A stretch of 60,521 nt of DNA, the filler included, from Sphacelaria rigidula (Eukaryota), in the NCBI GenBank assembly GCA_964200075.2. It is 9 parts of 9 records of this genome, joined end to end, with 100 filler letters (N's around TTAATTAATTAA, not from the genome) between each part and the next. Parts side by side here need not be neighbours in the genome. Positions count along the whole stretch, not along the records: positions 20,210 to 26,845 come from CAXNAA020018924.1; 8 more parts are not named here. One strand, written 5' to 3'. Made by a program: the position numbers and the translations under genes. Below, in pieces: positions 13,474-40,317 of this stretch. A model generated the notes under the pieces. The model was not told where the DNA came from. It worked only from the letters and a program-made list of their open reading frames with translations, and searched no databases. The number at the start of each line of letters is the position of its first letter. The first letter of the stretch is position 1.

Positions 13474-14277
13474 GCCCAGACACGTGGAATGGCGCAAAAA
13501 ATGCGTGGATACCCCTTGGACCAGCGGTCAACTGTCCTCTCCCTTTTGGGCCATCAGGTCGAATAAATCGTGGATTTGGTGATTCTTAGTCGTGACGATT
13601 CGTCCTAACCGTGTGTTATCTTCTGGTTGTGTCTCCTCTTTTGCGAAGCTGGCGGCTGAGAGTTTCTGCCAACTACTTAGCGCGGTCTCCAGATAAATGG
13701 GTCGAAGCCTGCTACCATGGCATTGCTTCATGCAGGGCCTCCTTACTCGAAGTCCTGGTTGAGGCGTGTCGAGGGTGCGAGGATTCGCCGATCCTGGTAC
13801 CGTAGCCCCCCGCGTCAATGCATACTGTTTATCTTCTCATTCCCCTCTCCACCTTTGGGCCCTTCTCTCGAGATTTCTCTATTTTAGCAAGGTTATGGGT
13901 TCCCCCACCTCGGATACGTACGTCCTTCCGGTGACCGTGGGACTGGGTTCGTAGAGGATCAGTGGAGATGCGATAATCAAAGGAACAGCCATACCACGTC
14001 GATAGCACCACATCCCGTCGGGCCAGGCTAATACTACGGTGGGGGACTACGTGGGAAGCCCTGGTGCTGTTCTCACCACCAAGCCCCGGTGGCGTAATGG
14101 TCCGACTGTCGCCATTGGGGCAGAGAGAACGGGGATTCGATCCCCGATGCGTCGGGTTTTACTTCGTAATGTAAGATTCCACCGTGGAATGCGTGAGAAC
14201 GTGAGGAAACGAAGTAGTCGACTGGGTGTGTGCGACGTGAATTGACGCGGTGCGGGAGTGCTGACCCAATCCGCGAG

Positions 14278-14393
14278 TCCAAAATGAAAGACGCGTACCA
14301 GGGGGGAGAAGGGTTATTCCCTTGAGACCACGGACTCATCCCAAGAAAGGAGAGGGGTTCAAAGTGTGAGGAAAGAAAAGAAAAAAAAAAAAA
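14278..14393 (+). mobile_element. A-tailed 3' end of a retroposon family (also at 53888-53991, and more diverged at ~47528-47575)
   Basis: CCAAAATGAAAG..GTACC..CCCTTGAGACCACGGACTCATCCC..GGTTCAAAGTGTG followed by an A-rich tail in two contigs. Confidence 0.7.
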
Positions 14394-14479
14394 TCATTCG
14401 ATCATTGGTTGCAGGTACCCTATCCGGAAAAAACCATGTTTCTGTGGTATCCACACGGTGTAGGTGGAGGGGAGGCACT

Positions 14480-16245
14480 ATTGAAAAAATGAGGGCAGAC
14501 GACAGCCTTCAGGTAAAACCTGGAAGTTTTTTCGGTCATAAACTGGTACAGTCCGCATCACGATATCAAGGATCCCAAATTTCCGGCCACGGGATCGTCC
14601 AAAACAGCTGCATGACTGCTGACGAAACAACGCCATGGACTTGTGTGTTTGTCTTGTTTTCTTTTTTCGCCGATCTGAGCTATACCCGATAGTCTCTTCT
14701 CTCCTACGAAATCTGTACCTGAATCTGACCGAAATTGTACCTGTTTCCGGCCTTTCGCGGGAAATTACTGAATGAAGTGCCGCATTTTTCACCGTTCTCA
14801 CAGTGGCAAAAGCAACGATGGTTGTGCACGCTCTTCGGACAAGGCATGTCCAAAAGTAACCCACGAGCAGGAAAGGTGTTTCGATTAGCGAAACTCGTGC
14901 AATTGTTAGACTTTTTGAGTCGGGGTGTGCCTGTCGTTGTGCGGCTACCGAGTTAGCTCACGACAGGCAACTCATGTACGGACAAAAACAGAATCGGGTG
15001 CAAAGACTGTCAGCAAGGAAGAGTCATGCACACCACAGCCCTATAAAAGTCATGCACCCAATACCCTTACGACCGGCGGTATCCGATCAAAGCGGGACAG
15101 CAGGCGTAAAGGTAGCACGATTGACTCCAGTGTGGTCTATGGCAAGGCATGTGCATGTGTGTCTAAGGCACAGTACGGCACAGTACGTTGCCGCACAGTA
15201 TATATGATGCACTTACAAAAGATATCAACAGTAGTGCACCATGGGGTGCAATCTGAAACCGTCGGTACTGTCGATCATTGAGTTATGCAACCCCCCCCGT
15301 ATCCATTACGTTTCCCGCCAGGCCAATGCAGTTCGTTGCGGCCAGCACGATGCCATACGACACAGTGTAGTCCATCCAGCACTGCGCAATACAAACAGCA
15401 TGGTGCAGCGGTGAAGCCCTTGTGCTTGTGGTTCGGTTGTAAAACGATTCTCATCTGAGGCAAAACGCCTCCGTGCTCTTCCGTGACGACAGATGCAGGT
15501 CTGCGTGTGTAAGACCTAACATGCTTAGTGGTGGTTTATTTTTGTACGTGCCGTCGGCGCGGCAATGCGCAGTGTCGACGTCCCTACATGTGTTCGTATC
15601 TTGTACACTATACAAGTGCTTGTCACCGACGACACTATATCCTATCGTCTGCTGTTCCGTCTCGATGGGTTAGCGCCGGCCGCGTTCATCTTTTTCGGGG
15701 TCTCGGGGTGCAGGTCTCTCTACTGTTTGGTACTCTTTGCATCCGATGATATACGTCCGTGAACGGGATGCCTGTCGCGGGCAAGCACGGTAGCCGAGCA
15801 GCGAACGGCGACAGGCAATCTTCGGCACCAAGGATCAAAATAGTTGCACAAGGTTCAGAGATCGGAACACATGTCCTGCTCGGGGGTACCGTACCCTCGG
15901 ACGAGAGTGCCTTGTGGGGTAAAACTCGAACGTGGACGGCCATCGTTGTTTTGCCATTATTGGAAAAACGGAAAATGCGGCACTTCAGCTTCATGCGAAG
16001 CACCAGGAACAGGCACAATTTTCTCGCCAGGTTTAGGTACATGCTGGAGTTCAGGTCCAGGTTTGGTAGGAGATAAATAATGACCAAGTATACCTGCGGT
16101 ATTTTTTGCCGGCAGCAGTTACACGGTTGTTTCGGCCGATCACGTGGCCGGATATCTGGATGTTTTGTCTTGTGGTGTAGCCTGTACCCGTTCGTGGCCG
16201 AAAACCATCCAGATATACCTGAAACTACCGCCTGCCTTTTTCTAC
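14480..16245. repeat. Large degenerate inverted repeat (arms ~14480-15110 and ~15640-16245)
   Basis: Three collinear blocks match as reverse complements, e.g. TGAAGTGCCGCATTTT..TGGCAAAA.CAACGATGG and TCCGGCCACG.GATCG.CC.AAACA. Confidence 0.7.
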
Positions 16246-19200
16246 TTGATCAAATATACTGTGACGTAAAAATGGGGAAAATATCGCCCACGTAGGTTCG
16301 CAAAAAATTATCTACTCGTACGTTATCATCCAGGAGGTAAATACTTCGACACGGGTGCAGTGTTACGCCGGGGAACTTGTTCTTTTTTTATTGTAGTCTT
16401 GTAAACGCCTCCCCGAAAAACGGTGAAAAACGGTGAATGATGGCAAATGTCCTGATTTCACAAGGATCGTCCGCACCAGCTGTGCATGCAGCAGCGGCCC
16501 AGACAGCATCGCCCAGGTAGAAGGAGCATGCGCGTGGAGGATTGGGGTATGTTGATATATAGGTAGGCAAAATCTCTTGCAGATTGCAATGACAAAAGTG
16601 TTCTATGCCGGAAGTTATAGCAGAAACCGTCCTGCCCAGGGTGAACGCCACCCCCCCCCTGTGAAACCTGATCTCCGGTGTTATGGGAGAGCACTGCGCT
16701 CGCGTAACACCACCGGCAGAGACGCAGAGAACGGTTTGGACATCTGAACAAAGCATCAGTTCCAGTGCAAAAGGATTTAGTGAAATCCATTCATGTAGCA
16801 GATGAAACGAGTTGACTAAAGTTTGAAAAGTTTGAATTTTGCTCCGCACCAGCACATGGGTGCTGCAAAGAGGCCCCTTTCCGTTGTACAAGCTGTTCAT
16901 CCCAGTCCAGTATAGCCCCGCGCGGTGCAATACCATGCACCCCAGCGCAGCACAGTACGTCACAACGCATGCAACGAAGTGCGGTGCAGTATAAAGAGTA
17001 TTGTACAGCCTGTGTAGTGTTATGTTCGGGTATGAACTGCGCCGGCTGGCAGAAGAAACACTGTGTACAGTACTACTGTACTACGTGATACGTAAATGGC
17101 GGCCGTGACCATGCATCAAGATTCACGACGTTGCGACATGCGGCCCTGGGAAATGTGTAATTCGGGGGGTTGTGCGCTCGTTGGAGAAATGTACCACACG
17201 CGCCTGGTGCCCTTTAGGGCACGACGATCGCACGGCACGTTGAAAACGTGCACCCGGGTTCCAACGACCACCAACGTGGAGGAACATCAACGGAGTGTAC
17301 AGAGCGCGGCAGGTGTCGAGAAACTCTTGCCTAGAGCGAGGCTCGGCGTCTCCTTTTCTCTCCGAATCCAGCAGACATGCTGAAATCCACTTTTTTTTCG
17401 ACGAGGTGCAAGACGCCGAATGCTTCAGCCTCAAATTCTTCTTTTGCACAGGCATAGGAGGAGCGGGCATCCAAGGTACTCCCCTACTCTTACCCTCTGC
17501 CAAAAGGGACTGCAGGATCAGTGCTGTACCGTGCGCTAGCAGTAAGCGAGCAGTACGTAAACCATTCTTGTTCTTACAGACAAAATCGGAACAAATACAG
17601 TGCAGTATTATTGAAGTTTGGTACAGATTGTCATTATCCATGGGGTGTCCCAGTAGAGATCAGTCATGTCTGCCAGCTTAAGAGAGGAGGCAGCTTCGCT
17701 GGAGGGCTGATGTAGCCATAGCGGTTGTGAAGGCAGGTTCTTATTATCCTGAGGTGCAGTTCATTGTTGCAAATTTTTACCTGCCGACCCTCTTGCACTT
17801 TCCGACTTCTTATTCTTATTTTCCCCTTGAGCTCGCCACGAATGCTTACCAGAAAATTCTTAAATTTAGAAGAAAAAAAAAACGGGCCGAAGATTATTAC
17901 CTACGAAATTTCTAACATCGGTCGCTCCTGTAATGGTACATAAATTTCGAGTTGGGAAATTGGACGTTACAACAATACGATGCGATGATCGGATGCGGCG
18001 ACCATGACAGATGATGATGCAGCAAGGAAAACTCCATTGTCGGTGGACCTCGCAGCACGAGAACCGCAATGTTGGAGGCACCTGGAATCAAAAGCATTGG
18101 TGTGCAATCCATCCCCACCCACCCCCCGGTTTATTTGCTGACCGTAGGTGCGGAAGATCCCCAAGACTCACACTTGGGATGCCACGTGTGGAGCACTTCT
18201 CAGGCGCCAGTCGGGGCAGTCCGAACGTGAGATACGGCACCGCAATCGATCTCGAGGTGAGAGCACCTCAACGCACTTGATGCAGTAATACCGCGGGAAG
18301 AGTAAGTGCTGAAGATCGCGGGCACCTGACTACATTACACTCGTTCCCGCTGATGATTTTGGGTGTTGAACGGAATTGAGTATGCATACATTTCGGAATC
18401 ATCTATCGTTATTGCGTATACTCCGGACAGGTTGTGAAGTGCCTGCACCATTCCCAGCGCTATCCCGTCTCACATATACCACATCCGCGGTTGACAGCGG
18501 ATCTCGATCGGCACACTCCGAACGTACAGCGCCGGTGGGAAATCTGAGGGACATCGCCGGGGGTCACGCCGGCGAAGTGGGCGGAGTGCGAGAGCGGCTG
18601 AGCCCCCCATCATCTGGAAAAGAGACGGTGACTGTACTGTTCTCTGCCTGGGAGGCGTCAATAGCGTCGACCGATGGCGCATCTGTAGAAATCAGGGGTC
18701 GGCGGAAGGGTGCAACAACCGTCGGAGTGCAGAGCGCAACAATCTTGAATGTCAATCGGGCGGGGAAGGCACGACTTGTGGAATGTCGACTGCTTCGGCG
18801 TCCGAAAACAACACGCGGGAGGTATCGTCGTGGAATCCGCCGGCGGTACCTTTCAAGGGCGTGGGTAATATCCCCCCAAAACTGGGACAGCTGCCGGTGG
18901 TGGGCTCGTCGAGGTGCAGAATTCAATACCGTCTTCCAAGGCGAAACAATGACGTACCCCGCCCAAGTCCGGCAGAGGCACACCCCCGCATGCTCACGAA
19001 CGGAGATCGAGTCAAAAGACGACGGCGAAAAATCACCCGGAGGTTGATAGCGCGTGGGGAGCATGGGATGAACAACAGCAGGCTGCATTGCAGCACAGAA
19101 ATGGGGTGAAGGAAAATCCACTCGTGGTACAACACTATCACGGTGAAACACCAACATCCGCATCCCCCCACACAGCAGAACGAGGACCGGTTCCAGGGTC

Positions 19201-20109
19201 ACCGGGAGGGTATTCCACCCCATCGGGACGAAGTAACAAGCGACCAGGCTCACCGCGCTCGTTGACACCAACAACTTCGGACGCATCAGCGTCAAAATCG
19301 AAGCAGAAGAGTGAGAAGGGAGAAGGCTACCGTTGTTGCAACCCCCGGGGTCGACGCGGGGGGTGTCAACACCTCATCTGCGGCGGGTTCGGGACGAGAA
19401 GAAATAGAGCCGGGGCCAATGAACGGGGCTGCCAACGCGGTTATAAGAAGTCCCGAGCACCGGTCACCACAATCCGATGCTGATCGTGGTGAACGTAGCG
19501 CGCGCGGTGCAAGAGGGAGGATGCCAATGCGTCGCCGTAGTTCTCAAGTTCCCCCCGGAAATCGTGATAGCTGCAGGAGCGATATTTCCGCGCCGGTGAG
19601 ATCTGACCCGGTTATTGGTGAAAGGGGGCGTGGAAAACCTAAGCGGGGATGTGGTCGCGATGTGTATGGCATGCAGGTCCCACTCGTCGACGGCGCATGC
19701 AAGGATTGTTCTCCTTGCGGTCGGATACACGTTCCGGTATCGCGGCTGTGCTTCGCGTGTCATCGACCAGGTCCCGGCGAGGGCAACATCTGGCGTCATC
19801 TTGGCGCGGCACGAGTACCTAAGGCTCGGCTATTTCTGGGATTATGTGAAGATGGTGATGATGTGCGCCCGGCTGCGCTTCTGCAGAACTATCAGCCTAG
19901 TTAAGATTGCTTATGCAGTCGGCCTGATTGTTTGCTGCGCTTCCTTGAGCGACACAAGTTCAAGGTCAGGAGTGATAGACGGAAGGCAAAGTCCGTCCGC
20001 CCGCTTTGCTCCACACCTCCGACCGTTGGCTCAACCCCCCCATCCGCCCTTTGGTTGATGTCGAACAAAAGTACGGTAGGATGGGAGGACTATACTAAAG
20101 CTCGGAAGG

Positions 20110-20209
20110 NNNNNNNNNNNNNNNNNNNNNNNNNNNNNNNNNNNNNNNNNNNNTTAATTAATTAANNNNNNNNNNNNNNNNNNNNNNNNNNNNNNNNNNN
20201 NNNNNNNNN
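20110..20209. other. Artificial contig spacer
   Basis: 44 N + TTAATTAATTAA + 44 N. Confidence 0.98.
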
Positions 20210-21577
20210 TTTCTTCTTTCAACGACCATCTGTCTCGAAATTTCGAGCAACAAATGGCCCAAAATACCCCCCCCTATCGTAGGACGACTCACTTACCAAT
20301 CACCAAGTATAAATCATCGCGTCGCATCACCCGTGACATTCCTAAAAACGAGTTTGGTCACACGCGGCAGGATTCGCAAAACAAAATAGGCCAAGTGTTC
20401 TAGGCTTGAGGGTCAGGAACGTGGGAACACTGATGGCGAAATTTCCGACATAGACGCAAAAAGCAAAACCAAAATAAATACAAAACCAGGGGCACGCTGG
20501 GCAACAGCGAAAACGAAATATCCGCAACAAGCAGAAAAACAACACGTGGCAACCGTCCTTGTAGAAGTGAGCGGTTATCGTGTGTACGAAGCAAGTGGGG
20601 TCAAACGTTTCAGCCAAGAAGATCAAGGTATCTGAGGCACTCGGCTTCGGTTACTATCGCTCATGTTAATATAAAACTCAACGTGGTACGCATACAAAGG
20701 AGGGACACGTCACGAACGATCCCGAGGAGGGAGGCGGCATTCGCGTACGGGTCGATTGAACAAGAGCGCAAATATTCCAGACGTGGGCATCAGGTATGGC
20801 AAGCGCTCGCTCCGGAAACTCTTCATCAAAAACAAACAAATAAACAATAAAGACAATGTAGTAAACAAAGCAAGACAAAAAGTGCGTACAATGAAGAAAA
20901 ATGAAGAAAAATATAACTCGTGGCAACTGTTTCAGTGGACGGAATGGTTGTGAATGTACGGCGCGGGGGACGGAGGTTCAAGGTCGACTCGGGGTCAGGA
21001 ATGGAACGGTCGTCACTTGTACTTTGCCAGATAAACCCAGGAATAACCAAGAAAATTATTCATTGGACACAAAAAATTGAAACAAAGCACGACGCGAAAG
21101 GAAAAGGAAAGAAGGGAAGAAAAAAAACAAAGACAAAAAAAAAATCAAAACAAATTGACGCGAAGGCAAAAACAAAACACAAACACAAAGCCAGGGTCCA
21201 AGGCAACAAAAAATAAAACACATCACAAAAAAAACGAAATTAAAAAAACAAAAAACGAAATTCAAAAACAAAAGACGAAATACAAAATACAAAACACAAC
21301 ATCAACCATTACAAGTACGGGGCTAATCAGTACGAAAAAAAACATGAAGGGGGGGGGGGGGGGGAACACATGGTTTTCCAAGGATGCTACGGTGCAAGAC
21401 AAGCGACTCGAACGTGGTACACTACGCAAGGTGAATGAGGAAGCAGACTCGGATGCGGCATCATGAGTCATCTGCATCCCAAGCGGTGCCCGTGTTCTGT
21501 AGAACCGGTGTTTCGAGCTCGCCTTGGTCGTGTCGTTGGAGGCACCAGGATCCCCTCCGAGCGGTCGGCTCCTCGGT

Positions 21578-21733
21578 GTAGCAAGCATCATCCAAGCGAA
21601 TCTTAAGGGGGCTCGGGTCATCGAGGAAACGGATCAAGTAGGAGTGGTCAGACGCAGGATCGACGAAATGAAGTTTACCCAACCACCACAGTGAATCCAA
21701 GGCCTTATACCAAAAGTACGCCCCTTTCGGCAA
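21578..21733 (-). pseudogene. Tudor/PWWP-like module at the extreme C-terminus of pol
   Basis: LPKGAYFWYKALDSLWWLGKLHFVDPASDHSYLIRFLDDPSPLKIRL has Royal-family spacing. It is separated from the chromodomain ORF by one stop/frameshift near 21780. Confidence 0.5.
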
Positions 21734-21896
21734 TCGTTTTCCGTGAAAACATTGCATGTATTTTGAACGTGAAAAAAGGCTAGCCTGTCACAACAAACCG
21801 CGCTGAGTGTTCACGTGCCAGTTCCCGAGCGGCAGCTCCCTTGCGCATCGACCGATATCTTTTATTCAACGGGCGGTGTTGGGCGGTATCTCCTAC

Positions 21897-22052
21897 CCAG
21901 TACAGCAATATTTCCCGATGAAAATGACGCAAGTCAACTTCACGCTCCCATGTAACACGCATGATACCCTTCCAATGTGTTTGATAAATTACCGCTATCT
22001 TACCTCCACGACCGTGAACAAGTTGATGACCCGAAATCCTATCTACCTCAAC
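21897..22052 (-). pseudogene. Integrase chromodomain (group II-like)
   Basis: VEVDRISGHQ..GRGGKIAVIYQTHWKG..VTWEREVDL. The first and third aromatic-cage positions are V and I. Confidence 0.85.
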
Positions 22053-22381
22053 GCGTTCCAGGGGTGCGTCCGCATCTTCTACCGTCATATGATACGGCGG
22101 AGTTTGGATCGCATACTTGGTCAACACATGCTGGCTAAGCCCTAGCGGCAGTTGTTTGGGCATGTCAGAGGAGTCATGAGGGGGGATACACGGTTTGCAT
22201 CGTAGCATCGAGACGCGATGTTTCGGTTTCAAATCAGGTTCATCCGTGGGAAAATCTAAATACAAAATTTTCGCTCCTACCGGAATCTTGTCGAGTGCGG
22301 TAGCGCTTGGACCAACAGCTAAAATTTCACAAGGACCAGTCCAATCCAAGGATAGTTTTGCCTTCAACACTTTGTCCAAAG

Positions 22382-22586
22382 GACACTTTCTACGATAGCC
22401 CCCCCCCAGAAGTGCATGGTTTTGGGAGGCAAAATCTTCACGTNNNNNNNNTTGGGTTCGTTCTAGCCAATGTCGCCACTATGAGGCGCTTCATGTAGCC
22501 TGAGCCCGAACATGAAGCGCTGTATGGCCATTTTTCTCGTGACACTTTTAGCTGGTTTTGGGGGGAGGGCTATCGTAGAAAGTGTC
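22382..22586. mobile_element. TIR DNA transposon insertion (interior collapsed to an N gap), 4-bp TSD AAAG
   Basis: AAAG|GACACTTTCTACGATAGCCC...GGGCTATCGTAGAAAGTGTC|AAAG. Removing it restores integrase continuity (SKSSSL-DKVLKAK). Confidence 0.92.
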
Positions 22587-25500
22587 AAAGATGATGATTT
22601 CGAGCTAGCCCCTTGATTGATGGTCTTCACATCGTTATACACCCATACCCATTGACCCATCTTCCACACCGGGCGGTTATGCACCACATCATCCAACATC
22701 GAGTTCGCCCTGGCCACCTTGGCCAAATTGATTTGGTTCTGTTCTCGTACCACTTCATATGCAAGACGAAGGCGATTGCTAACCAACAAATGATACTCTA
22801 CAACATCACGCTCTAGGCTCTGATGTCCGCCTGTGTTTTTCCGTTCGAATGCCGTTAAAGGTAACCTAGGCATGCGTCCAATATGAATTTTATTCGGCGA
22901 CAAACCCGTAGCGGTATTGACTCAACTGTTATAGTTCATTTGGACAAGGGGCAGGTGCAGGTCCCAGTCCATCTGTCTCTCATTTGCTACAGCAGCAAGC
23001 GTCTGCGCCATCGTATGGTTCACTCGTTCCATTCCACCATTGGTGGAGGGGTTATATGAACTAGTGAAATTGCGATGGGCACCCAACAGGTCCTCGACGG
23101 CGGCTAAAAGTTTGCCTGAAAAATGCGGGCCGTTGTCAGAGTAAGCGTTTAGGCACACCCCACAGTGGGATGTACATGTATACAAAAATGTTGACGGTAC
23201 CTTCCGCGTTATAGCTACTTGCGGGGATAGCGTGCATCACCGCATGTCGACTAAATCTATCAGCAAACAACAAAATATACGTATTCCCACTATCCGTCAG
23301 GGGCAACGGACGAAAATAGTCCCACGACACTACTTCACCAGGCCCGTTTGGGAGTGGCACGGACACAATCGGCCAACGAACTGTTTGACGGGAAGTTTTT
23401 CGCGCCTAACACAAAAGACAACGCCTCATCCACCAACGACAACACTGATCCATACAAATCCACCAATAAAAACGTTCCAACATCTGGGAGGTCCTAATGG
23501 CACCTAAATGAGTCGATGCCTGTGAATGGCATTCGTGTAGAACCCATGGGCGCAGGAGCATCGGGACATAGATGCGGATGGGTTCATCGCCTAGAAAGCG
23601 GGCATGTCGACTTGTAGGCTTCCCCCTGGGGAGGACTGCTGTGGGCCGGCGAACTAACAGTAATATACCATCATCATCCATATGTAGCATACCTTTCCTT
23701 GAGAGTTCAGTAACTTCATCCTGTGTGGGCGCTTTGAGGTTCCCGACTGGCAAAAGAAATTCGGTTTCTGAGAATGGACATGGGCAATCTTCAGATAGAT
23801 GATGGATAGCTGATTTACAAGCAGGTTCTGCCTGTCGTTCCCGGGCCCAATCGGCGTGGGAGAAGAGAGTCAAACGTTCCTTGAATACACCATATGTTGA
23901 AGCGTCTACTTCGTGTTGGGTCGGTTTGGGGAGCGGTTGGCACGAAGCGGTGATTTCGGAATCAAGGGTGAGCCTACCAGTTGGTGTACTCTCAGACGGA
24001 ATGTTAACGTCTACTCCTGTGTCGATTAGCGTGGAGGGTGTTGTGGTGGTGTTTGCAATATCATCACCGAGGGAGGGGGGCACAGCCGTGGTTTCAGCTA
24101 TGATTGGCAAGGGCGGCACGGTTGGGGTCGATTTTCTGGGAGCCTTGCGTCGTGGAGCTTGAGGAAGCACAAGGAAACTATCGGGAACCGGGGTGGGGGC
24201 AAGGAGGGGAAGGTCAGAACCAGATACGGCAAATTTGGTGGCCGTTTCGGTGGTTCGCCGTCCACGAGTCCTACTCGAAATCAAATCTCGAACTTGAACT
24301 GGTAAGACGGAGTCAGCAAAGGACGGTTCTACACCTGCTGCGAAAACGATGCGCTGGCCAGTTGCACGAAAATGATCATAGCCAACAGTATTCGTAGACA
24401 GTCCATTCCAAACTGAGTACAACGATTGAGGTTGCAAACTGCCAAGAACTGATGCGTGGGCTGTGGTCGTCAGCCCACCCATGCCTAAACCCGGCGGTTC
24501 TCTCAGTGAAAGTGGTGTGTAGAGACCTCTATGTCCATTTCTGCTTATGAAATATACAATGTCTTCGGTGGGATCGGTGATACGTCCCATGGGGGGTTCA
24601 TCGATAGGTTGAGCTGGTGTGAGCAAGCGTGACAGGAAGTCGGCGTTTGAATTCTGAGGACCTGTGCGGTACTTCAGTTGAAAGTTGTAAGACGACAGGA
24701 TTTCGAACCAGCGTTGGACCCTAGCGTTGTGTTCCGCCATTTTGGCAAGGCTTTCCAAAGACATATGATCGGTATAAATCACAAACGGGATGTCATAAAA
24801 ATACTGACGCAGACGTCGCACGCCCCCAAACAACTGCGCCGGCCTCTTGTTCCATGACAGACCAACTTTGTTCATTCGGAAAAGTGGTGCGACCCAGATA
24901 AACTATGGAACGAACAGTAGCATCGACTTGCTCCTGTTCTAATTTGCAGCCAAACCCAATTTTGGAAAAATCTTTGTGGAGCCGGAAAGCGCGGGAACCC
25001 TGCTCCGCGGCCGACCAGTCGGGGAAGACGAGAATCGGCGGGCGCGAGAGGGTGTCAAGAAGACGGCGGGCGGATTTTTTCATTTCCAATGTGAACACAA
25101 ATTTCACCCCTTTTTTGAGGAGGGTGGTGAGGGGTTTTAGCGTTTAGGCAAGGTTTGGCAAGTACTGTCTGTAGTAGCTTAGATCTCCCAACAAGGAACG
25201 CAGTTGAGAAATCTCCCGTGGCATGGGCATATCGGAGAGTGCGGCGACCTTGTCGAGGTTTAGGCTACGACCTTCGGGGGTGATGCAATGACCCAAGAAC
25301 TCAATCTTCGTGGCGCCAATGCGGGATTCGGAGGGTGCGAGTTTCAAGTTATGTTGTTCAAACGGGTCAAAGAATGATGCCAACTGTTCGACGTGTTCAG
25401 TCGGTGTCGAGTCGTGGCACACTGCATCATCAAGGTGCATATGGCATTTGAGCAACCCATCAGTTACACGAAACATTACACGAAACAGTACACGTTGAAA

Positions 25501-26845
25501 CGCACCTGGAGCTCCGGCGGCACCTTGGGGTGTAACCAGCCACTCGTACAAACCTGATGGCGTGCAAAACGCTGTCAGTTAAATGGATTTTGGATCTATC
25601 ACGAGCTGGTGGTAGCCGGACTGCATATCAAAGTTCGAAAATACCTTACTCCCGCCAAGAGAGTCAATAATTTCATCAATCCGTGGAAGTGGCAACCGGG
25701 CGATTTTGGTGACAGCGTTCAATCGTTGATAATTGACCGTCAGTCTGATTTTGCCATTTTTCTTACGGACGACTACTAAAGGCAAGGCCCACGGAGACGT
25801 CGAGTGCCATATTAAGCCGGCGGATAGGTAATCATCGAGAATTACATGGATCTCATCCGCTAAGAGGGGGTTCGTACGGTACGGACGCATAGCGATAAGT
25901 GGAGTGCCATCAGGAATCGTGATCTTGAACGGTGTCGTGGTACATCGACCTAAATCCAAGGGTTAAGTCTGAAACCGTTTAGAATATCTACTCAAGATGG
26001 ATCTCAATCTTCTATCGATTACAGTGGGTGTCCAACCATCGCCAGATAGATCAAAAACAATATGCCGTGAGTGAGGGGGAATGTCATCACACAACCTTCG
26101 AAAACTGGCGCGTTGTTCTGGAGAAAATCTATCCAGTAATGCAGTTGGGGTTGAGGGTCAGGCGCATCCGGTGCATTTGTCACCACCATGGGGTCAGGCA
26201 TGTGTAGCGGAGGGGGGCCCGTGGATTTCGGGGGGTCGGTCGGCGAGTTGTTGTCTGCAGGGGGGCACACACCTGACAGGGCGCTTCGTATGAGAGGCGC
26301 TTGAGCATAACCCAACAACTGAACGTTGAGTTTATCGAAGCATGCAGGTGACGTGAGGTAAATGGCCTGCCTACCTTCGTGGACAAAGACGTCGGTCTGT
26401 TCAAACGGACCAACCTGTGCTTGGTCAGATTTAAGCAATTCGACCAAACAATGTCCTGTGAGGGCGGGCGATCCATTGCGTGTCACGAGGTTCACTTGGA
26501 TAAGTTGGGGTTCACGAGAAAGCGAGACTGCTGGTTCACCATATTAGTCGTGTGATTTCACTCATGGTAAATGTAAAGATCCAGGATACTATCACGAGAC
26601 TGTCGGAGGAAAATGTGGTGGATTAACCGATGGGAAACGGTACCGGTGATTTCCAGAAATGGTACTGAGAACGACGGTTCGAATCGTTCTCGGAATGTTC
26701 TGGAAAGTGTTGGTTGTTCTTCATTTTGATCTGGAATGATCCGGAAACGACGGGGAGTTATATTGTGGTATGCGGGATGTTTCTGCGGGATAAAACAGTA
26801 GATATTTACCGTAGATCGATAAGGATTCTCGACGGAGATGCGAGA

Positions 26846-26945
26846 NNNNNNNNNNNNNNNNNNNNNNNNNNNNNNNNNNNNNNNNNNNNTTAATTAATTA
26901 ANNNNNNNNNNNNNNNNNNNNNNNNNNNNNNNNNNNNNNNNNNNN
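26846..26945. other. Artificial contig spacer
   Basis: 44 N + TTAATTAATTAA + 44 N. Confidence 0.98.
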
Positions 26946-27819
26946 GGGGGAAACCGTTCCGAGATCGTGACCCCCCGATTTTTTCGCCCCCGATCTGGTC
27001 CAAATCCGTGTCCATAAAGTGCGTTCCCCGATTTATTTTCCCCCCAATTTTGAAAAAATCGAGATTCGTGCCTGCCATAAAAGTGGGTCTAGCATCCATA
27101 TTGATTTTTGGCTTCAACCCATGAAAAAAAAATGTTGAGGTACGGTTTTTCGTTGTGCCCTTGCGATTCTCCATACCAAACGTCTACGCACAACCCTCGA
27201 AACTGAGCTGCTGCATCGCCTGCAACGGTTAAATACGTTCCTCGGCTAGCCCAGCACATAAAGCCAGCCACGGCTGCGTAGATGGGCTGCAATGTCGGAC
27301 CGCGTCCAAGTCAGTGATTTTTGGTCGTACATTTCTATTTACGCTCCAGGATGCTCGAAAACAAGAGAAGGGACAGTTCCGAACAGGATCATCATTAAGC
27401 GGGCTACCTAATACGTGTCGAAAGAATATTTGACACCCTGGACGATGTACGGTCAATCCAAAAGAGTTGCAGTAGGCCTGTAGTTTACGCAGTACGATTC
27501 TTCTACTGCAACTATTGACCGTACATACACTGTACAGGGTGTGGGATACTCTCGGAACACTCTCAAGATTATGACTATACAGTGGGGTGCCCCATACAGT
27601 ACCGGCACGTGCCAAGCAATCTCACGGGCACTATTGCGGCGACCGGCACTATGCAAATTGGCCCTACATAGATTATACTCTATACGATACGTGCCAAGCG
27701 ATTTCACCGGCGCTATATACAGGACACCTCACCGACAACAAACGTACAAACGGTCTCGTACCACTTGAGTACGGGTGCATATCTTCATTGTAAGTACCCA
27801 GAGAGCATGACCCACTCAC

Positions 27820-27899
27820 CGTAACGCTGACATTGTTATTCGCGGCATAAAGCTTCACGGCTCCCACCACGGCGTCCGTTTCTGCTTGGCTGAACTTAC
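27820..27899 (-). CDS. Exon of a Myb-like (TTF1/DMTF1/Reb1-type) protein: GKFSQAETDAVVGAVKLYAANNNVSVT
   Basis: CAG acceptor, GTGAGT donor, G-x-FS-xx-E-xx-hh-xx-V-xx-Y Myb-like start, phase-compatible with the 30529-30579 exon. Confidence 0.7.
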
Positions 27900-29590
27900 C
27901 TGCGTTCAATCATTCCGATCATTCAGTCATTGGACAACGCCGACACGCAACGGCAAGCGTCGTCGATTCCCAGAGTACGCTTCTAGTGCTTGCACCACAG
28001 CTGCTGTGCTGCAGTCCAAATCATGTCTTGATAAACGATGAATTTTTCACTGTACGGGCGTCCATTCTTGTATCTGCAATGCACCGCGGGGCGGATTCGC
28101 GTAAAACCGACTGGAGCAGTATATTCCTGCAAACTCGATCCTACCCATTTTTGTCTTCAGATCCTGAACTCCTTTCTAGCTTGTTGTACAGTTCGCATGA
28201 ATAACGGACGGTACGGCCTATGCGCTCCGAATAACGATTAACTCCTTCACCCAAGGTAAAAAACATGCCGTGTCTTGTTCATCCATCCGACAACATCCGG
28301 CGAGCTAAAGCCGTCTCTTCAAAATCGATCAATTGACGGAATCGGTGCATTTTACTACATGTCCACCATAAAGATTTTATGAAACGCTACGAGTATTCTT
28401 TGGCCGAAAGTGATCGGATCGAAAAAATCGACACACCATATTCGCATTGCTCCGACGAGTAAGGTCCTCAACTTTGTTAAGGGTGCGTTAACTGAATAGT
28501 CCGTCGTTCAGATCAAAACAGCACGAACTAGGGTGTTCGGTCATGATCCAGGATTTAGAAGAAGGCATATAATCTGGTGTAGACGAACAAGCTGATTTTA
28601 CTCCGACTACCAGGCTGTTCGCGAAAATACACGACTTGTTCACCAGTCGATTTTCCAGCTTCTCGTACACAGCTTCTATAATAGTGACGACTCTATTTCG
28701 GAGCGTAACGTACTGACACCAACAACATCAACCAATGGTTGGGAATAAACGATTAATATGAGTGCCATGGCGCCTGCTAGAGAGAGACCTCACTGTTAGC
28801 TGAACGAGGAATAGAAAATGACACATGAACATACGTTTGCGCAGACGCTTTAGCGAGTACTTGTGCAACTAGCAAGGTAGGCAATGGGGTTATCGTCGAG
28901 GGACCTCCGACCGATAACGTATGGCTAATGAGCATTTCTGTCTGACCCAGTCAGGAGAAACGTCGTGCAACAGCCAACGGTCGAGCTGCTATTTCGAAGA
29001 AGATGACAGTAACATCTTAGTGGCGGAATATTGTGTCATGCACGACTTCACACAGCCAAAAAATCCGTACTGTTGATGAATCAAGACACGGCCTAGCACG
29101 GCGTAAGCGTATCGATCCCAGTCAACTCCGTTCGAATCCTCGTCGGAAACAACACTCGACATCGCCGAGGTTCGCTGACGACACGACACACCATGCACTC
29201 TGAGCAGTTTGACCCTTAGACCGCGAGGTTAGTCTTCTGTTGAATCGGCATCAATTACAAGTGTAAAAAAGTATGCATGATCCAGAAAGACTAATCTCGC
29301 GGTTTAAGGGTTAAGTTGCTAGATCGACAACGACTTCCGCAACTTCGCGGCGTTCACACATTTTTTTTTTCTCCTTCATGCGTGTTTTTCCCTTCTCGAC
29401 ACATTTCTTGGAAATGGCATTGCTCGGGAGTTTCGTCGCCTGAGATCTGCACCTAGTGGTGAATTTTTCTAGCGCGCGCGTGTGAGGGGAGGGAGGGGGG
29501 GGGTCTACACTTGGCTTAGGTGACTGATTTGACTGATTCCCGGGCAGTATGTGATCAACAGTGAAGACACTGGGACGGCTAGCCAACGTC

Positions 29591-33681: not shown

Positions 33682-36600
33682 CTCATCAGGTACTAATCAT
33701 ATTCAATCGAATCCCCTCCCTTCACAGGAGAGGAAGTCATGTAGTGCAGTTTCTCACGAATCAGGAGCCGAAATATCTTCTGGTACGATAGACACTGCTG
33801 CTCCGACCGTTCATCGCAGAACACCAAATTCGAAGCCTCACACTCAAGCACCCCCCAACTGCTCAAATGCCTGGCTAACCACCCTACCGAGTTCCGCAAA
33901 AACTACGGTACCCGGTTCCCTTCTATTTGATGAGCGTAATTATTCCTTGAAGGGTCGCAACCGCAAAGAACCCATGCTTTCCGTAGCCCAGCGGGTTGGA
34001 ATGGAACCCCAAGTGACAGCGACTCAGGTGGTGCGCCAAGAGCGTGACCTAGGTTCGGCTGTCCAAGAATTCATTTCAATAGCTCCTGGAGTCGCCGATC
34101 CTTTCGTGCGTTATACGCGTCACCAGAGGCGGGCCACTCCAGATGATCATGTAGATAATCCTGATGTAGCAAGCGCACGTGAACTCCAAGGAGGAGATTG
34201 CGTGTGGGCTCAGACAGATGAAAACCTTAGAGTGGAACAGGCCGGTACTCCCCAGATTTCAAACAGATCGTTACTGCTCCCTGACCACCCCGCGTGCACT
34301 ACGTTAGAACCCATTTCCGATGAAGCGTTGTCGTCTGTAGGGACAGAGACTTCGCCGACTCATGGACGTTCGCATCCTAGTCACGAAGACACCTCAATCG
34401 TGTGTTGGTCACCAGGCAAACAAAGTGCTACGGTAGACGACTCGTCTCCTACCTCGCCCACGTTGGCCCCTTTAATAGATGCCGGGTTGAACAGTACAGC
34501 TTTACCAACCCCGCGTCCTGACGAATCGTCTCCGAAACCTCCCATGTTGGCCCTACCTAGTGATGGTATTGCGTTGATTGGCGTATCAAAGTCAACACAG
34601 CGCCCAAATGAATCGTCCCCTGTTCCGACCAAGCTGGATAATGTAATTGATGACGATTCACCCCCTCTGTTGACCAATAAGGGTGAAACACGACGCACAA
34701 ATCAGTTGTCGGGTCCAACCACGACAGGTGCCCTTTCCCGACATCGCCCCTCCGTTGCAGTATATCAGATTCAACGCTCGATTGATGAGACAAATATTTC
34801 AGGCACAAACACTGACACTCCCTGCACGCACCATCCTTCCGACCAAAAGCTTGTCCCACAGGATCATCAACGGGTGTATTTTAGCACCTTCGTTCAAAAT
34901 GCAAAGCAGGATGTGTCAGATGTCTTACCCGAATTCGGGCCCGATCTCGTCAGTGGTACTGTAACTCTGGATGGTGCTTCTTTTACGACCAAAATAGGTT
35001 CACATAGTGGAGCGCGTGCAAACTGTCATTTGATAGCTCTTGCACTACCAGACTCTGGTTCACCTCAAACGTTCATCACAGCCAGCTGCTGGCAACAGAT
35101 GATCAACGCGGGCGCGGCGGACGAGCATTGTCTGTCTACCGTGCACCCTCGCGTTTTTGGTGGGTTTGGTTCCTCCACATCTCTTACGGTCAATCAATCG
35201 GTGAGACTAAGTGTACAATTCTACCAGGATACTACTCCCACTGCTCGGTTGTCCGTATGGGCACTAATTGTGCCCGACGGTTCCATGTCTTTTGATGTTT
35301 TGTTGGGTCGAGATAGTTGGCTTCGATTTTCCACACACACGTATACGACGGACACACCTGTCCCGAACCGTCCAGTCACAGGCAAACTGTCACTGGGCAC
35401 TTCGACACTGATTCGGGAGCTCATGCTTATGAGGATGACCCCAAGAAAACAGGTGATGCCTTTCGTCTGTACTATGTTGGTGAACCGGTAATCTCGCTTT
35501 CTCGTGAACCCCAACTAATTCACGTGAACCTCGTGAGACGCAATGAATCGCCCGCCCTCACAGGACATTATTTGGTCGAGTTGCTCAAACGTGACCAAGC
35601 ACAGGTTGGTCCGTTTGAACAGACCGAAGTCTTTGTCCACGAAGGTGGGCAGGCGATTTGCCTCACGTCCCCTGCACGTTACGATATACTTAACGGTCAG
35701 TTGTTGGGTTATGCTCAAGCGCCTCTCATACGAACCGCCCTGTCAGGTGTGTGCCCCCCGGCGAACAACAACTCGCCGCCCGACCCCCCGATATCCACGG
35801 GCCCCCCTTCGCTACACATGCCTGACCCCATGGTGGTGACAAAACCACCAGATGCGCCTGACCCTCAACCCCCAACTGCATTACTGGATAGATTTTCTTC
35901 AGAACAACGCGCCGGTTTTCAACAGTTGTGGGATGACATTCCCCCTCACTTACGACATATTGTTTTTGATCTATCTGGCGATGGGTGGACACCCACTGTA
36001 ATCGATAGATTGAGATCCATCTTCATGAGATATTCTAAACAATTTTATACTGCACCCTTGGATTTAGGTCGATGTACCACGACACCGTTTAAGATCAAGA
36101 TTCCTGATGGCACTCCTCCTATCACCATGCGTCCGTACCGTACGAACCCCCTCTTAGCGGATAAGATCCAGGTAATTCTCGATGATTACTTGTCCGCCGG
36201 TTTGATTCGGCACTCGACGTCTCCGTGGGTCTCGCCTTTAGTAGTCGTCCGTAAGAAGAATGGCAAAATCAGACTGACGGTCAATTATCAACGATTGAAC
36301 GCTGTCACCAAAGTCGCCCGACTGCCACTTCCACAGATTGATGAAATTATTGACTCTCTTGGCGGGGGTAAAATATTTTCGAACTTTGACATGCAGTCCG
36401 GCTACCACCAGCTCGTGATGGATCCCAATTCCATTGAACTGACGGCGTTTCGCACGCCATCAGGTTTGTACGAGTGGTTGGTTACACCACAAGGTGCCGC
36501 CGGAGCTCCAGGTGCGTTTCAACGTGTAATGTTCCGCATAACTGATGGATTGCCCAAATGCCATATGTACCTTGATGATGCGGTGTGCCGCGACTCCACA

Positions 36601-39600
36601 CCGGCCGAACACGTCGAACAGTTGGCATCATTCTTCAATCGGTTTGAACAACACAACTTGAAACTAGCACCCTCCAAATCCCGCATTGGCACCACGAAGA
36701 TTGACTTCTTGGGTCATTGCATCACCCCCGAAGGTCGTAGCCCAAACCTCGACAAGGTCGCCGCACTCTCCGATATGCCCATGCCACGGGACATTTCTTA
36801 ACTGCGTTCCTTGTTGGGAGGTCCCAGCTACTACAGACAGTACTTGCCAAACCTTGCCCGAAAGCTAAAACCCCTCACCACCCTCCTCAAAAAAAGGGGT
36901 GAAATTTGTGTTCACATTGGAAATGGAAAAAACCGTCCGCCGCCTCCTCGACACCCTTTCGCGCCCGCCGATTCTCGTCTTCCCCGACTGGTCGGCCGCG
37001 GAGCAGGGTTCCCGCCCTTTCCGGCTCCACACAGATTCTTCCAAAATTGGGTTTGGCTGCACATTGGAACAGGAGCAAGTCGATGCTACTTTTCGTCCCA
37101 TTGTCTATCTGAGTCGCACCACTTTTCCGAATGAACAGAATTGGTCTGTCATGGAACAAGAGGCCGGCGCAGCTATTTGGGGCGTGCGACGTCTGCGTCA
37201 GTATTTGTATGACATCCCGTTTGTGATTCGTACCGACCACAAGTCTTTGGAAAGCCTTGCCAAAATGGCGGAACACAACGCTAGGGTCCAACGCTGGTTC
37301 GAAATCCTGTCGTCTTACAACTTTCAACTGAAGCACCGCACAGGTCCCCAGAATGCAAACGCCGACTTCCTGTCACGCTTGCCCACACCAGCTCAACCTA
37401 TCGACGAATCCGCCATGGGACGTATCACCGATCCCACCGAAGACATTGTATATTTCATAAGCAGGAATGGACATAACGGTCTCTACAAACCACTTTCACT
37501 GAGAGAAACGCCGGCTTTAGGCATGGGTGGGCTGATGACCACAGCCCACGCATCAGTTTCAGGCAGCTTGCAACCTCAATCGTTGTACTCAGTTTGGAAT
37601 GGACTGTCTACGAATACTGTTGGCTATGATTATTTTCGTGCAACTGGCCAGCGCATGGCTTTCGCAGCAGGTGTAGAACCGTCCTTTGCTGACTCCGTCT
37701 TACCAGTTCAAGTTAGAGATTTGATTTCGAGTAGGGCTCGTGGACGGCGGACCGCCGAAACGGCCACCAAATTAGCCGTATCCGGTCCTGATCTTCCCCC
37801 CCTGCCCCCACCCCGGTTCCCGATAGTTTCCTTGCGCCCCCGCAGCCTTCGCGACGCAAGGCCCCCAGAAAATCGACCCCGACCGTACCGCCCCTACCAA
37901 CCATAGCCGAAACCACGACTGTGCCCCCCTCCAGTGGTGATGATATTGCAAACACCACCACAACACCCTCCACGCTAATCGACGCAGGAGTAGACGTTAA
38001 CGTTCCGTCTGAGAGTGCACCACCTGGTAGGCTCACCCTTGATTCCGAAATCACCGCTTCGTGCCAACCCCGCCCCGAACCGACCCAACACGAAGTCGAC
38101 GCTTCAACAGGTGGTGTATCCAAGGAACGTTTGACTCTCTTCTCCCACGCCGATTGGGCCCGAGAACAACAAGCGGAACCTGCTTGTAAATCAGCTATCC
38201 ATTATTTATCGAAAGGTTGTCCATGTCCATTCTCAGAAACTGAATTCCTTCTGCCAGTCGGGAATCTCAAAGCGCCCACACAGGATGAAGTTACTGAACT
38301 TTCGAGGAAAGGTATGCTACATACGGATGATGATGGTATAGTTCTGTTGGTTCGCCGGCCCACAGCAGCCCTCCCCAGGGGGAAGCCTTCAAGTCGACAT
38401 GCCCGCTTGCTAGGTGATGAACCCGTCCGACACTTTCTACGATAGCCCCCCCCCGAAACCAGCTAAAGGTGTCACGAAAACACTGGCCATGCAGCGCCTG
38501 ATGTTCGGGTTCAGGCTGCATGAAGCGCCTCATATTGGCGACATCGGCNNNNNNNNNGATTTACGTGAAGATTTTGCCTCCCAAAACCATGCACTTTTTT
38601 GGGGGGGGCTATCGTAGAAAGTGTCGTCCGCATCTATGTCCCGATGCTACTACGCCCATGGGTTCTCCACGAATGCCATTCACAGGCATCGACTCATTTA
38701 GGCGCCATTAGGACCTCCCAGATGTTGGAACGTTTTTATTGGTGGGTTTGTATGGATCAGTGTTGTCGATGGTGGGTGAGGCGTTGTCTTTTGTGTCAGG
38801 CACGAAAAAAACTTCTCGTCAAACAGTTCGTTGGCCGATTGTTTCCATGCCACTCCCAAACGGGCCTGGTGAAGTAGTCTCGTGGGACTATTTTGGTCCT
38901 TTGCCCCTGACGGATAGTGGGAATAAGTATGTTTTGTTGTTTACGGATAGATTTAGTCGACATGCGGTGATGTACGCCGTCCCCCCCAGTAGTTATACCG
39001 CGCGAGGTACCGCCAACATTCTAGTCTACATGTACATCCCACTGTGGGGTGTGCCCAAACGCTCATTATCTGACAACGGCCCGCATTTTCAGGCAAACTT
39101 TCTGCCGCTGTCAGTGACCTTTTGGGTGCCCATCGCATTTTTACTAGTTCATATCACCCTTCCACCAATGGTGGAACGGAACGAGTCAACCATACGATGG
39201 CGTGTTTTGTATTTGGTCTTTCGTTTTTGTATTTTAAATTCTTTGTTTTTGTGTTGCGTTTTGTATTTTGTTCCTTTGGACCCTGTTTTTTTTGCTTCGA
39301 TTTTCTTTGCCTTCGTTTTCCATGTTTTATTTTGTTTTTGTCTTCTTTTCGTTTCGCCTCGTCCTTTATGTTCGATTTTCTTGTGTTCAATGGGTACTTT
39401 TCTTGGGTACCTCTGGGTTCATCTAGCGAAGTACAAGTGATGACCGTTCCATTCCTGACCCCGAGTCTGGAACCTTGAACCTCCGTCCTCCGCGCCGTAC
39501 ATTCACAACCATTCCGCCCACCGGAACAGTTGCCACGAGTTATTTGTGCCTTCATTTGTTTTTCTTCCTTTTCGTTGTACGTATACCTTGTTTTGCCTTG

Positions 39601-40317
39601 TTATTACCTGGTCTTCATTTTTTATTTGTCTTTTCTTTATGGAAGAGTCACTTTTTTTTATGGAAGAGTTAACGGAGCCAGCGCTAGCCATATTTGACGC
39701 CCACGTCTGGAATACTTGCGCTCTTGTTCAATCGCTCCGCACGAGAATGCCGCCTCCCTCTTCGGGATCGGTTATGACGTGCCTTTTTTGTGTCATACGT
39801 TGTCGGTATTTTTCTTTTTCTTTTTTGCCTGTTCGGTTGAGAGTTTTAGGAGCGAGCGCTGCATATACCTGACCGCCCTGTGTGGAATAATTGCGCTCTT
39901 GCCCACCCGCTCCGTACACGCATACCGCTCCCCCCTGCAGGATCGGCAATGACGTGTCCCTTTTTTGTGTGCGTACTACGTTAATTCTATATTGACATGG
40001 GTTGCCTGAAATGTTTTGACCTTCTTGGCTGAAATTTTTTGACCCTGCTTGCTTCATACACACGATAACCGCTCCCGTTTACAAGGACGGCTGCCACGTG
40101 TTTTTTTTCTGCCTTGTGTTGCGGATTTTCGTTTTCGCTGTTGTCCAGGGTGTCCCTGGTTATTTATTTTGGTTTTGTTTTCTGCGTCCATGTCGTGAAT
40201 TTCGCCACGAGTGTTCCAACGTTTCTGACCCTCGAGTCTAGAACACTTGGCCTACTTTTTTTTGCGAGTCCTGCCGCATGTGACCGACCTCGTTTATAGG
40301 AGGGTCACGGGTAATGC
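33682..40317 (+). mobile_element. Ty3/Gypsy element, copy 2 of the same family (decayed, internally deleted)
   Basis: Protease (LPDSGS, VLLGRD) in 33947-35491; RT (YLDD) in 35317-36801; RNase H in 36899-37906; integrase HHCC and DDE at 38650-39200. Collinear and highly similar to the reverse complement of 20330-26541. Confidence 0.95.
38429..38625. mobile_element. TIR DNA transposon insertion (same family as 22382-22586), 4-bp TSD GTCC
   Basis: GTCC|GACACTTTCTACGATAGCCCC...GGGGCTATCGTAGAAAGTGTC|GTCC. The empty site is visible in copy 1 (DEPIRIYVP). Confidence 0.93.

Follow-up and report, generated by a model that had tools for sequence, protein, structure and literature searches.

The 60,521-nucleotide stretch of Sphacelaria rigidula DNA analysed here (the window) harbours, on its minus strand at 22379..21461, the end of a Ty3/gypsy integrase, as identified from open reading frames (ORFs) and by tblastn on the window. 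A preliminary description, made from the sequence alone, had proposed that the chromodomain in this segment is followed by a second reader module of the Tudor/PWWP type. All the elements it listed lie on the minus strand where it had placed them, and we found that intact relatives do carry a second reader-type module after the chromodomain and in frame with it. Judged by its homologues, the C-terminal segment is a genuine domain of pol. The arrangement of the domains and its conservation in intact, high-copy pols were directly observed, and the two folds are predicted by modelling. The view that we favour, with moderate confidence, is that the segment is the C-terminal end of a dead brown-alga Ty3/gypsy pol, and that in active copies it would serve as a chromatin-tethering module composed of a chromodomain, a helix and a Tudor-like domain.

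Concerning the element itself, the degraded pol occupies 21464..26543 on the minus strand, where Pfam and tblastn revealed a protease, reverse transcriptase (RT), RNase H, a long spacer, integrase, the chromodomain and the Tudor-like domain; the order protease, RT, RNase H and integrase is that of a Ty3/gypsy pol. Among the window ORFs, the Pfam models RT_RNaseH, RT_RNaseH_2 and Integrase_H2C2 scored above the cut-off, and rve scored below it, on split pieces. The RNase H, the H2C2 zinc finger of the integrase and pieces of the DDE core were located between 25143 and 22922 (stop-to-stop ORFs, Pfam). The full-length pol P0156 (1670 amino acids, aa), whose precomputed Pfam list comprises RVT_1, RNase H, H2C2 and rve, was colinear over residues 65-1659 with 26540..21485 in tblastn. 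The RNase H and H2C2 matches and this colinearity bear out the identification as a Gypsy integrase. Along the P0156 alignment the window frames run -1, -3, -1, -2, -1, -2, and because the reading frame thus changes five times, this copy of pol is dead; it carries several frameshifts and an insertion resembling a miniature inverted-repeat transposable element (MITE), and its Tudor part is out of frame.

The C-terminal part is distributed over two ORFs. ORF A (22478..21783) contains a GPY/F-like motif (DKVLKAKLSLDWTGPCEILAVGP; 22308..22376, minus strand, coordinates by tblastn), which is kept as KLSLxxxGPxKIxxVGP in a 48-sequence family alignment, followed by a chromodomain-like stretch and a helix, and terminates at a TAG at 21782..21780. 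ORF B (21787..21464, 108 aa) contains GAYFWYKALDSLWWLGKL...SYLIRFLDD (GAYFWYK...DSLWWLGKL...SYLIRFLDD). The two frames share only eight bases, at 21780..21787 on the minus strand, where the in-frame TAG of ORF A falls within the first bases of ORF B and the tblastn frame changes from -1 to -2. Since in the relatives P0152, P0153 and P0001 the frame continues across this position (...ARFV(V/I)AGY(S/R)...), a single frame break separates the two ORFs. No further break was found by tblastn with P0152 between 22403 and 21464, which agrees with the single lesion near 21780 that had been proposed. The pol stop codon, at 21461..21463 on the minus strand, gives the same C-terminus (...AWDADDS) as that of the intact relative P0152.

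The relatives of ORF B were then examined. A phmmer search against 1.84 billion representative proteins gave 182 matches at E<=1e-3, of which 50 were at E<=1e-10 (best E, 6e-39), and the majority were short fragments. Such a result lies well outside what chance would produce. In P0153, P0023, P0021, P0027, P0086, P0120 and P0045, the chromodomain, the helix and the new domain are encoded in one frame. P0152, an 'unnamed protein product' of 324 aa from Sphacelaria rigidula found by a word-index search, shares 86% identity with ORF B and 87% with the part corresponding to ORF A. When the part of P0152 from the chromodomain to the end was used to search long proteins, 22 of the 27 matches covered the module to at least residue 302 of 324; the other five are cut short, one by interruption with a Copia fragment and others by drifting out of frame. 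Seven of the 27 matches have the make-up of a pol, with RVT_1, RNase H, H2C2 and rve in a length of 1372-1848 aa, and further pols, of 2170-2422 aa, came from a profile search. The full-length pols that bear the new domain measure 1618-2422 aa. P0156, P0159, P0162, P0170-P0173, P0181, P0183 and P0185 possess these four domains together with the module at the extreme C-terminus. High-copy intact clusters are represented by P0170 (197 members) and P0168 (185 members). All sources with a named organism are brown algae, namely Sphacelaria rigidula, Nemacystus decipiens and Ectocarpus sp. CCAP 1310/34.

Local hidden Markov models run over the 276 proteins fetched detected the chromodomain in 141, the new domain in 234 and both in 103. 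Both were present in 15 of the 17 proteins of at least 1000 aa in this query-biased set, and the other two are interrupted. The median gap is 36 residues between the chromodomain and the new domain and 23 residues between the new domain and the C-terminus, and the spacing between the WERE and WW motifs is 89-92 residues in nine proteins. An intact subfamily devoid of the Tudor part was considered and rejected. Of the 276, the 38 proteins with only a chromodomain end at various positions or lose the frame, and a natural end right after the chromodomain was seen in none of them. Within this query-biased set, the condition that the preliminary description named as refuting, intact copies stopping at the chromodomain, did not hold.

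Several relatives depart from this arrangement. P0010, P0013 and P0151 (612-832 aa, with coiled-coil and Ser/Arg-rich sequence) have a C-terminal Tudor-like module with a GYxLV cap and neither the chromodomain nor the arginine helix; homology of the N-terminal parts of P0010 and P0013 to pol or to the window was not found. These three may represent the protein of another element or a case of host co-option. P0045 (626 aa) bears a divergent chromodomain and Tudor-like pair after about 430 aa of non-pol sequence, which might reflect domestication of a copy or a chimeric gene model. In two proteins from Ectocarpus sp. CCAP 1310/34 the module itself is altered: P0177 breaks in the first Tudor strand and continues into a Copia-type RNase H segment, resembling a nested insertion, and P0184 repeats a block of 83 residues that extends from the C-terminal part of the chromodomain, across the helix, as far as the first two Tudor strands.

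The chromodomain was assigned to 21897..22061 on the minus strand (LERVEVDRISGHQ...WEREVDLRHFHREILLYW, including the stretch LERVEVDRISGHQ...REILLYW) on the basis of an AlphaFold2 model, VIA-align searches and column counts. The Pfam model Chromo (PF00385) gave 17.1-18.1 bits with P0152, P0153 and P0023, below its gathering cut-off of 25.1, and gave no match at E<=0.1 with window ORF A or with P0021. Searched with phmmer against PDB sequences, the chromodomain part matched MPP8 at E 0.5. The model of P0152, built with a 48-row alignment, is confident over residues 121-314. In it, the chromodomain (130-180) is predicted to consist of strands at 130-140, 146-154 and 161-164 and a helix at 165-180, that is, the three-stranded antiparallel sheet and C-terminal helix of the chromodomain fold. 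Residues 125-184 matched Chp1 (Z 6.5; 1.7 Å over 53 residues), dHP1 (Z 6.1; 1.7 Å over 51 residues), Polycomb (Z 5.8) and also CHD1 in VIA-align, with middling Z-scores, and Foldseek gave MPP8 (E 0.079, prob 0.99).

The aromatic cage of this chromodomain is degenerate. We take the cage of HP1 to consist of Y24, W45 and Y48, a numbering consistent with the chain ranges of the VIA-align matches. Of the columns in the 48-sequence alignment, that equivalent to Y24 (position 128) is aromatic in none of 29 sequences and holds L/I/V/M, and that equivalent to Y48 (position 157) is aromatic in one of 35 and holds L/I; the column equivalent to W45 (position 154) is Trp in 34 of 35. One of the three aromatics expected of a methyl-lysine reader is thus kept across the family, as in the preliminary description, which had noted two missing cage aromatics. 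As these columns are non-aromatic throughout the family, the weak cage is a family trait and not a consequence of decay of the window copy. Loss of the first and third aromatics resembles the situation in the plant 'group II' chromodomains.

Between the two domains lies a conserved arginine-rich alpha-helix (LNKRYRSMRKGAAARELAREH; KRYRSMRKGAAARELAR), at 21807..21869 on the minus strand. It corresponds to residues 191-208 of the P0152 model, in a block with predicted local distance difference test scores (pLDDT) of 87-93. R207 is invariant (48/48), and R197 (46/47), A201 (47/48) and R203 (46/48) are nearly so; the conserved arginines suggest contact with DNA or the nucleosome. The helix is followed by an N-terminal extension of the Tudor-like domain with the motif GYxLVxxxxWxxRF (21734..21781, minus strand), modelled in ORF B as a short strand (2-4) and a helix (7-14) with pLDDT of 88-91. 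Y218, L220 and F230 of this extension (P0152 numbering) are conserved in 41, 38 and 42 of 48 sequences, respectively.

The remainder of ORF B, at 21530..21733 on the minus strand (LPKGAYFWYKALDSLWWLGKL...YLIRFLDDPSPLKIRL...GSWCLQRH), is predicted to be a Tudor-like SH3-type beta-barrel from AlphaFold2, Foldseek, profile and VIA-align results. The AlphaFold2 model of ORF B, built with a 143-row alignment, has a pLDDT of 81.8, with 68 residues at 90 or higher, and displays five strands (24-28, 34-42, 49-54, 57-64 and 81-86), where a small SH3-like barrel has four to five. Foldseek against the PDB placed the Tudor domains of PHF1, PHF19 and MTF2 on top (E 5e-3 to 7e-2, prob 1.00), with root-mean-square deviations of 1.9-2.5 Å over 47-52 columns and 21-33% identity (PHF1 32%, PHF19 29-31%, two MTF2 rows 21%); PHF20 and TDRD3 were among the further matches. 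VIA-align with ORF B gave Z-scores of 5-7.7, comprising the TraI translocation-signal domain (7.7), Spindlin1 (7.0-7.2), PHF1/PHF19 (6.2-6.4) and, lower down, RDM15, TDRD3, PHF20L1, LBR, SGF29, MRG15, Agenet and SAWADEE barrels. In the P0152 model the barrel lies at 218-302, and residues 221-314 likewise matched Tudor-type barrels in VIA-align. At the sequence level, ORF B alone matched only the PHF19 Tudor among PDB sequences (E 0.45), and a profile of the 143-member family reached PHF19 Tudor at a borderline E of 0.004 and PHF1 at about 0.15. We call the domain a Tudor/Royal-family SH3-like barrel because three structure searches agree and a sequence link exists, no single score being decisive. 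As a predicted fold, the Tudor-like barrel is supported, and the high confidence of the AlphaFold2 and Foldseek results is in accord with the SH3-like barrel anticipated in the preliminary description.

As for the PWWP alternative raised in that description, ORF B has LWWL at the place of the PWWP motif, and one PWWP was found at Z 6.3, level with the Tudors. A helical bundle after the barrel was absent from the ORF B model, where the tail has a pLDDT below 50. For this reason Tudor probably fits better than PWWP. A search of the ESM Atlas with the Tudor part gave only leads below 0.9 (Spin/Ssty and a plant Tudor family), which we did not count as evidence, and a viral structure library gave just generic small barrels of phages and giant viruses at 8-21% identity.

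The aromatic residues of the barrel were compared with the cage of PHF19, which we take to be formed by W50, Y56, F74 and Y80; the first three numbers agree with the alignments to PHF19. The equivalent of Y56 is W251 of P0152 (W35 of ORF B), which is Trp in 46 of 48 sequences, and the equivalent of F74 is F270 (F54 of ORF B), which is Phe in 43 of 48. Also conserved, in P0152 numbering, are W242 (45/48), Y/F243 (45/48), W250 (48/48), Y/F266 (47/48) and D272 (44/48). From their conservation, W242, Y243, W250 and Y266 may complete a non-canonical cage.

Taken together, these features describe an integrase that in this family ends in a fixed three-part module, consisting of a chromodomain with only the central Trp, an arginine-rich helix, and a Tudor-like barrel with a strand-helix cap, the two folds being predicted. 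In active copies the module would act like the chromodomains of chromoviruses and tether the integration complex to chromatin. The Tudor-like barrel would then be the principal reader of a methylated residue in a histone, with the cage-poor chromodomain and basic helix adding nucleosome or DNA contacts. The module probably guides where new copies insert. The histone ligand, the targeting and the compensation for the weak chromodomain cage are what we infer from the features above. Candidate marks would be H3K36me3, H4K20me3 and H3K79me2. The Tudors of PHF1/PHF19, the closest with solved structures, bind H3K36me3, and in one matched entry Spindlin1 binds H4K20me3. According to the accessible part of a 2025 Genome Biology article (PMC12477816), H3K27me3 and H3K9me1/2/3 are absent from Ectocarpus, and H3K79me2 and H4K20me3 are linked to repeats. 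Methylation of H3K9 and H3K27, the usual chromodomain ligands, is thus described as lacking in Ectocarpus (PMC12477816), and we therefore expect the likely ligands to be other marks present in brown algae. A chromodomain that gives up its cage, accompanied by a second reader of another mark, fits this repertoire. We also put forward, as a speculation that we regard as rather unlikely, a lineage-wide, self-encoded bipartite tether in which, in a host devoid of H3K9 and H3K27 methylation, the ancestral chromodomain lost its cage, a captured Tudor took over target recognition (reading H3K36me3, H4K20me3 or H3K79me2), and the module was later reused in proteins of the P0010/P0013 type.

Some of our results weigh against a histone-reading tether. 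The protein sets counted above were collected with queries containing the Tudor part and are biased towards it. None of the Pfam models for Tudor, PWWP, MBT and Agenet reached its cut-off with the window ORFs or the 143 family members, among which weak matches were obtained to Agenet (12/143, best E 0.0018) and to an SH3 model (13/143). The Z-scores are middling, the best (7.7) being to TraI, which is not a histone reader, and by the tool's own guidance a Z below 8 can mean merely a common arrangement. The best Foldseek E-value, 5e-3, does not reach 1e-3. The column equivalent to W50 of PHF19 is Ala, Ser or Gly in 43 of 48 sequences (A22/S17/G4), and by alignment the canonical Tudor cage is incomplete, with two of the three alignable positions aromatic and the fourth outside the alignable part.

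These points bear on what the barrel binds. It is possible, if somewhat unlikely, that it recognizes nucleic acid or a host protein and not a histone mark, in the manner of PWWP-DNA binding or of the C-terminal SH3-like domains of retroviral integrases; the arginine helix would then aid DNA binding, and any targeting would proceed via a DNA or protein tether. Such a role would suit the Ala/Ser at the canonical cage position, the best Z-score going to the TraI translocation-signal domain, the Z of 6.3 for a PWWP bound to single-stranded DNA, and the adjoining helix with its invariant R207 and near-invariant R197 and R203. On the other hand, the only links at the sequence level are to the methyl-lysine-reading Tudors of PHF1/PHF19 (29-32% identity over 47 columns), aromatics occupy two of the alignable cage positions, the Phe is still followed by an acidic residue, and many conserved surface-type aromatics suit a cage better than a DNA surface. 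SH3-like barrels are also the fold of integrase C-terminal domains, so that the barrel might serve as an additional structural part in integrase multimerisation or intasome assembly, a second barrel of this kind without a role in site choice. The weak matches from Foldseek did include a chain of a Rous sarcoma virus intasome (E 0.089, prob 0.30). We consider this improbable: the intasome match is poor, Royal-family readers dominate the three structure searches, and the module also occurs without an integrase at the C-termini of P0010, P0013 and P0151, unrelated non-pol proteins, which favours an autonomous binding module.

Lastly, ORF B lies in a frame other than that of the chromodomain in the window and is Pfam-negative, as would be a chance open frame, sequence of a long terminal repeat (LTR) or untranslated region, or a fragment of a neighbouring gene. 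We attach practically no weight to an origin of ORF B outside pol, however. Many of its 182 homologues have it in frame with the chromodomain at a fixed spacing, intact pols end with the domain, and the closest relative shares the position of the stop; the homologues, the continuity of P0152 and the full-length pols refute such an origin.

The module can be compared with several known systems. Chromodomains at the integrases of chromoviruses such as Tf1 and MAGGY were reportedly described by Gao et al. in 2008, a study cited in PMC11541908. As in the window family, the chromodomain of chromoviruses follows the GPY/F region of a Ty3/gypsy integrase, and it is thought to direct integration to marked chromatin; chromoviruses, however, end at the chromodomain, whereas the window family continues with the helix and the Tudor-like barrel. 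The Tudors of the Polycomb-like proteins PHF1, PHF19 and MTF2, which read H3K36me3, provided the best Foldseek matches and the only PDB sequence matches, and the Y56 and F74 cage positions of PHF19 are aromatic in the window family too. The window family differs from PHF19 in having Ala/Ser at the W50-equivalent position, with a further strand-helix at the N-terminus and with the last strand preceded by a long loop. An analogy is offered by LEDGF/p75, a host protein bound by lentiviral integrase, whose PWWP domain, also a barrel of the Royal family, connects the integrase with marked chromatin. In the window family, by contrast, the reader is encoded in pol, and the barrel is devoid of the PWWP-type helical bundle.

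Long pols of the window's family, P0181, P0183, P0185 and P0191, carry near the N-terminus the Pfam domain PF08719, which we take to be NADAR. In P0191, from Ectocarpus, it is found together with the Tudor-like barrel. The accessible part of PMC12477816 describes four Gypsy lineages in Ectocarpus, three of them with 'putative C-terminal chromodomains', and one of these chromodomain lineages, exemplified by Gypsy-12_Ec32, also with an N-terminal NADAR. As its relatives carry NADAR domains, the window family most likely belongs to this chromodomain-plus-NADAR lineage, an assignment made by domain content and not by alignment to a named family. The two have in common the host group, the pol layout, the C-terminal chromodomain and, in relatives of the window family, NADAR; only a chromodomain is described at the C-terminus of the lineage in the portion of the article at hand, and the window family adds the Tudor-like barrel (PMC12477816). 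The lineage of Gypsy-10_Ec32, in the same portion, has a C-terminal Tudor, which is presented as the first one reported from a transposable element (PMC12477816). Like the window family, it is a brown-alga Gypsy whose integrase ends in a Tudor-type reader. Compared by description only, it is given as a separate lineage with a Tudor instead of a chromodomain (PMC12477816), whereas the window family has the tandem and NADAR-bearing relatives; the two Tudors may nevertheless be homologous. The statement in the preliminary description that such integrases normally end at the chromodomain thus needs qualifying, Gypsy-10_Ec32 having been published in 2025 as far as the available text of PMC12477816 goes. 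Brown-alga chromodomain lineages are placed outside the chromovirus and Chronos clades in the accessible parts of PMC12477816 and PMC11541908. For the centromeric ECR elements, the corresponding parts of PMC11541908 and of the preprint 10.64898/2025.12.07.692804 describe chromodomains and leave Tudor unmentioned. In the literature searched, which leaves most subscription journals outside, we found no description of a chromodomain-plus-Tudor integrase, and PMC12477816, in its accessible part, was the only relevant source. The fusion of a reader domain to a Gypsy integrase is already known, and the chromodomain and Tudor tandem may be a further form of it.

The landing sites of retrotransposons shape genomes, and chromodomain-guided integration is the textbook example of a self-encoded targeting device. 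According to the text available of PMC12477816, the usual chromodomain ligands are absent from brown algae and yet all their Gypsy lineages carry readers, which raises the question of what these readers bind. The conserved pair of domains described here, a cage-poor chromodomain with a Tudor-like barrel behind it, is missed by Pfam; it offers a concrete candidate for the real reader, and makes the ligand question testable with existing brown-alga chromatin immunoprecipitation sequencing maps and with peptide arrays. It also indicates that scans with family databases under-report reader domains fused to transposon proteins. If true, reuse of the P0010/P0013 type would represent traffic of reader domains between mobile elements and other genes.

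Further features of the element were observed in the window. Between the RNase H and the integrase zinc finger, at 23560..24700 on the minus strand within ORF 23406..24902, there is a Pro/Ser/Thr-rich, Pfam-negative stretch of about 370 aa. Full-length relatives align colinearly with it at about 38% identity, and it is for this reason regarded as a conserved spacer. A second copy of the same retrotransposon family was found on the plus strand at 34853..39211 and on to 40317, with about 91% identity over 35478..39202. This copy passes from the integrase core directly to an A-rich 3' region; since the interval between the two is missing, the chromodomain and Tudor part are deleted there. Neither copy contained a NADAR segment detectable by tblastn with three NADAR-bearing pols.

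Downstream of pol, 20324..21277 (minus strand) is a low-complexity region that is A-rich on the plus strand. By blastn, 20324..20869 matches 40317..39787 (77%) and 20694..21277 matches 39791..39201 (75%), and as the region is common to the second copy, it is part of the 3' portion of the element. The A-rich low-complexity stretch as a whole extends over 20324..21364 with a run of 16 G at 21349..21364, and neither a polypurine tract nor an LTR could be assigned in it. No pair of direct repeats flanking pol was found for either copy in a repeat search of 14000-34000 and a self-blastn of the full window, and the ends of the element are therefore undefined. Paired runs of 44 N with 12 bases between them recur about every 6736 bases from 6638 to 53887 of the window. 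They look like masking or scaffolding and not biology, and may hide LTRs or gag.

The integrase is split by the MITE-like insertion of 205 bp at 22382..22586 (no strand assigned), which is bounded by terminal inverted repeats (GACACTTTCTACGATAGCC), with AAAG on either side and 8 N in its centre; the upper end of the segment under study, 22379, sits just below it. Upstream of the insertion in pol, the C-terminal region of the integrase (...VWVYNDVKTINQGASSKSSSL) continues at 22587..22921 on the minus strand in ORF 22463..22921, matching residues 1-111 of P0153 with 72% identity in tblastn, and P0152 is continuous over the insertion point (...NQGASSKSSSLDEVLKAKLSL...). A second MITE-like copy was present at 38429..38625, 83% identical to 22382..22586, in the opposite orientation and with GTCC on either side. 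Both are about 200 bp long with ends GACACTTTCTACGATAGCC, 4-bp target duplications (AAAG and GTCC, respectively) and a central 8-9 N, and each resides at a different site within a copy of the same retrotransposon.

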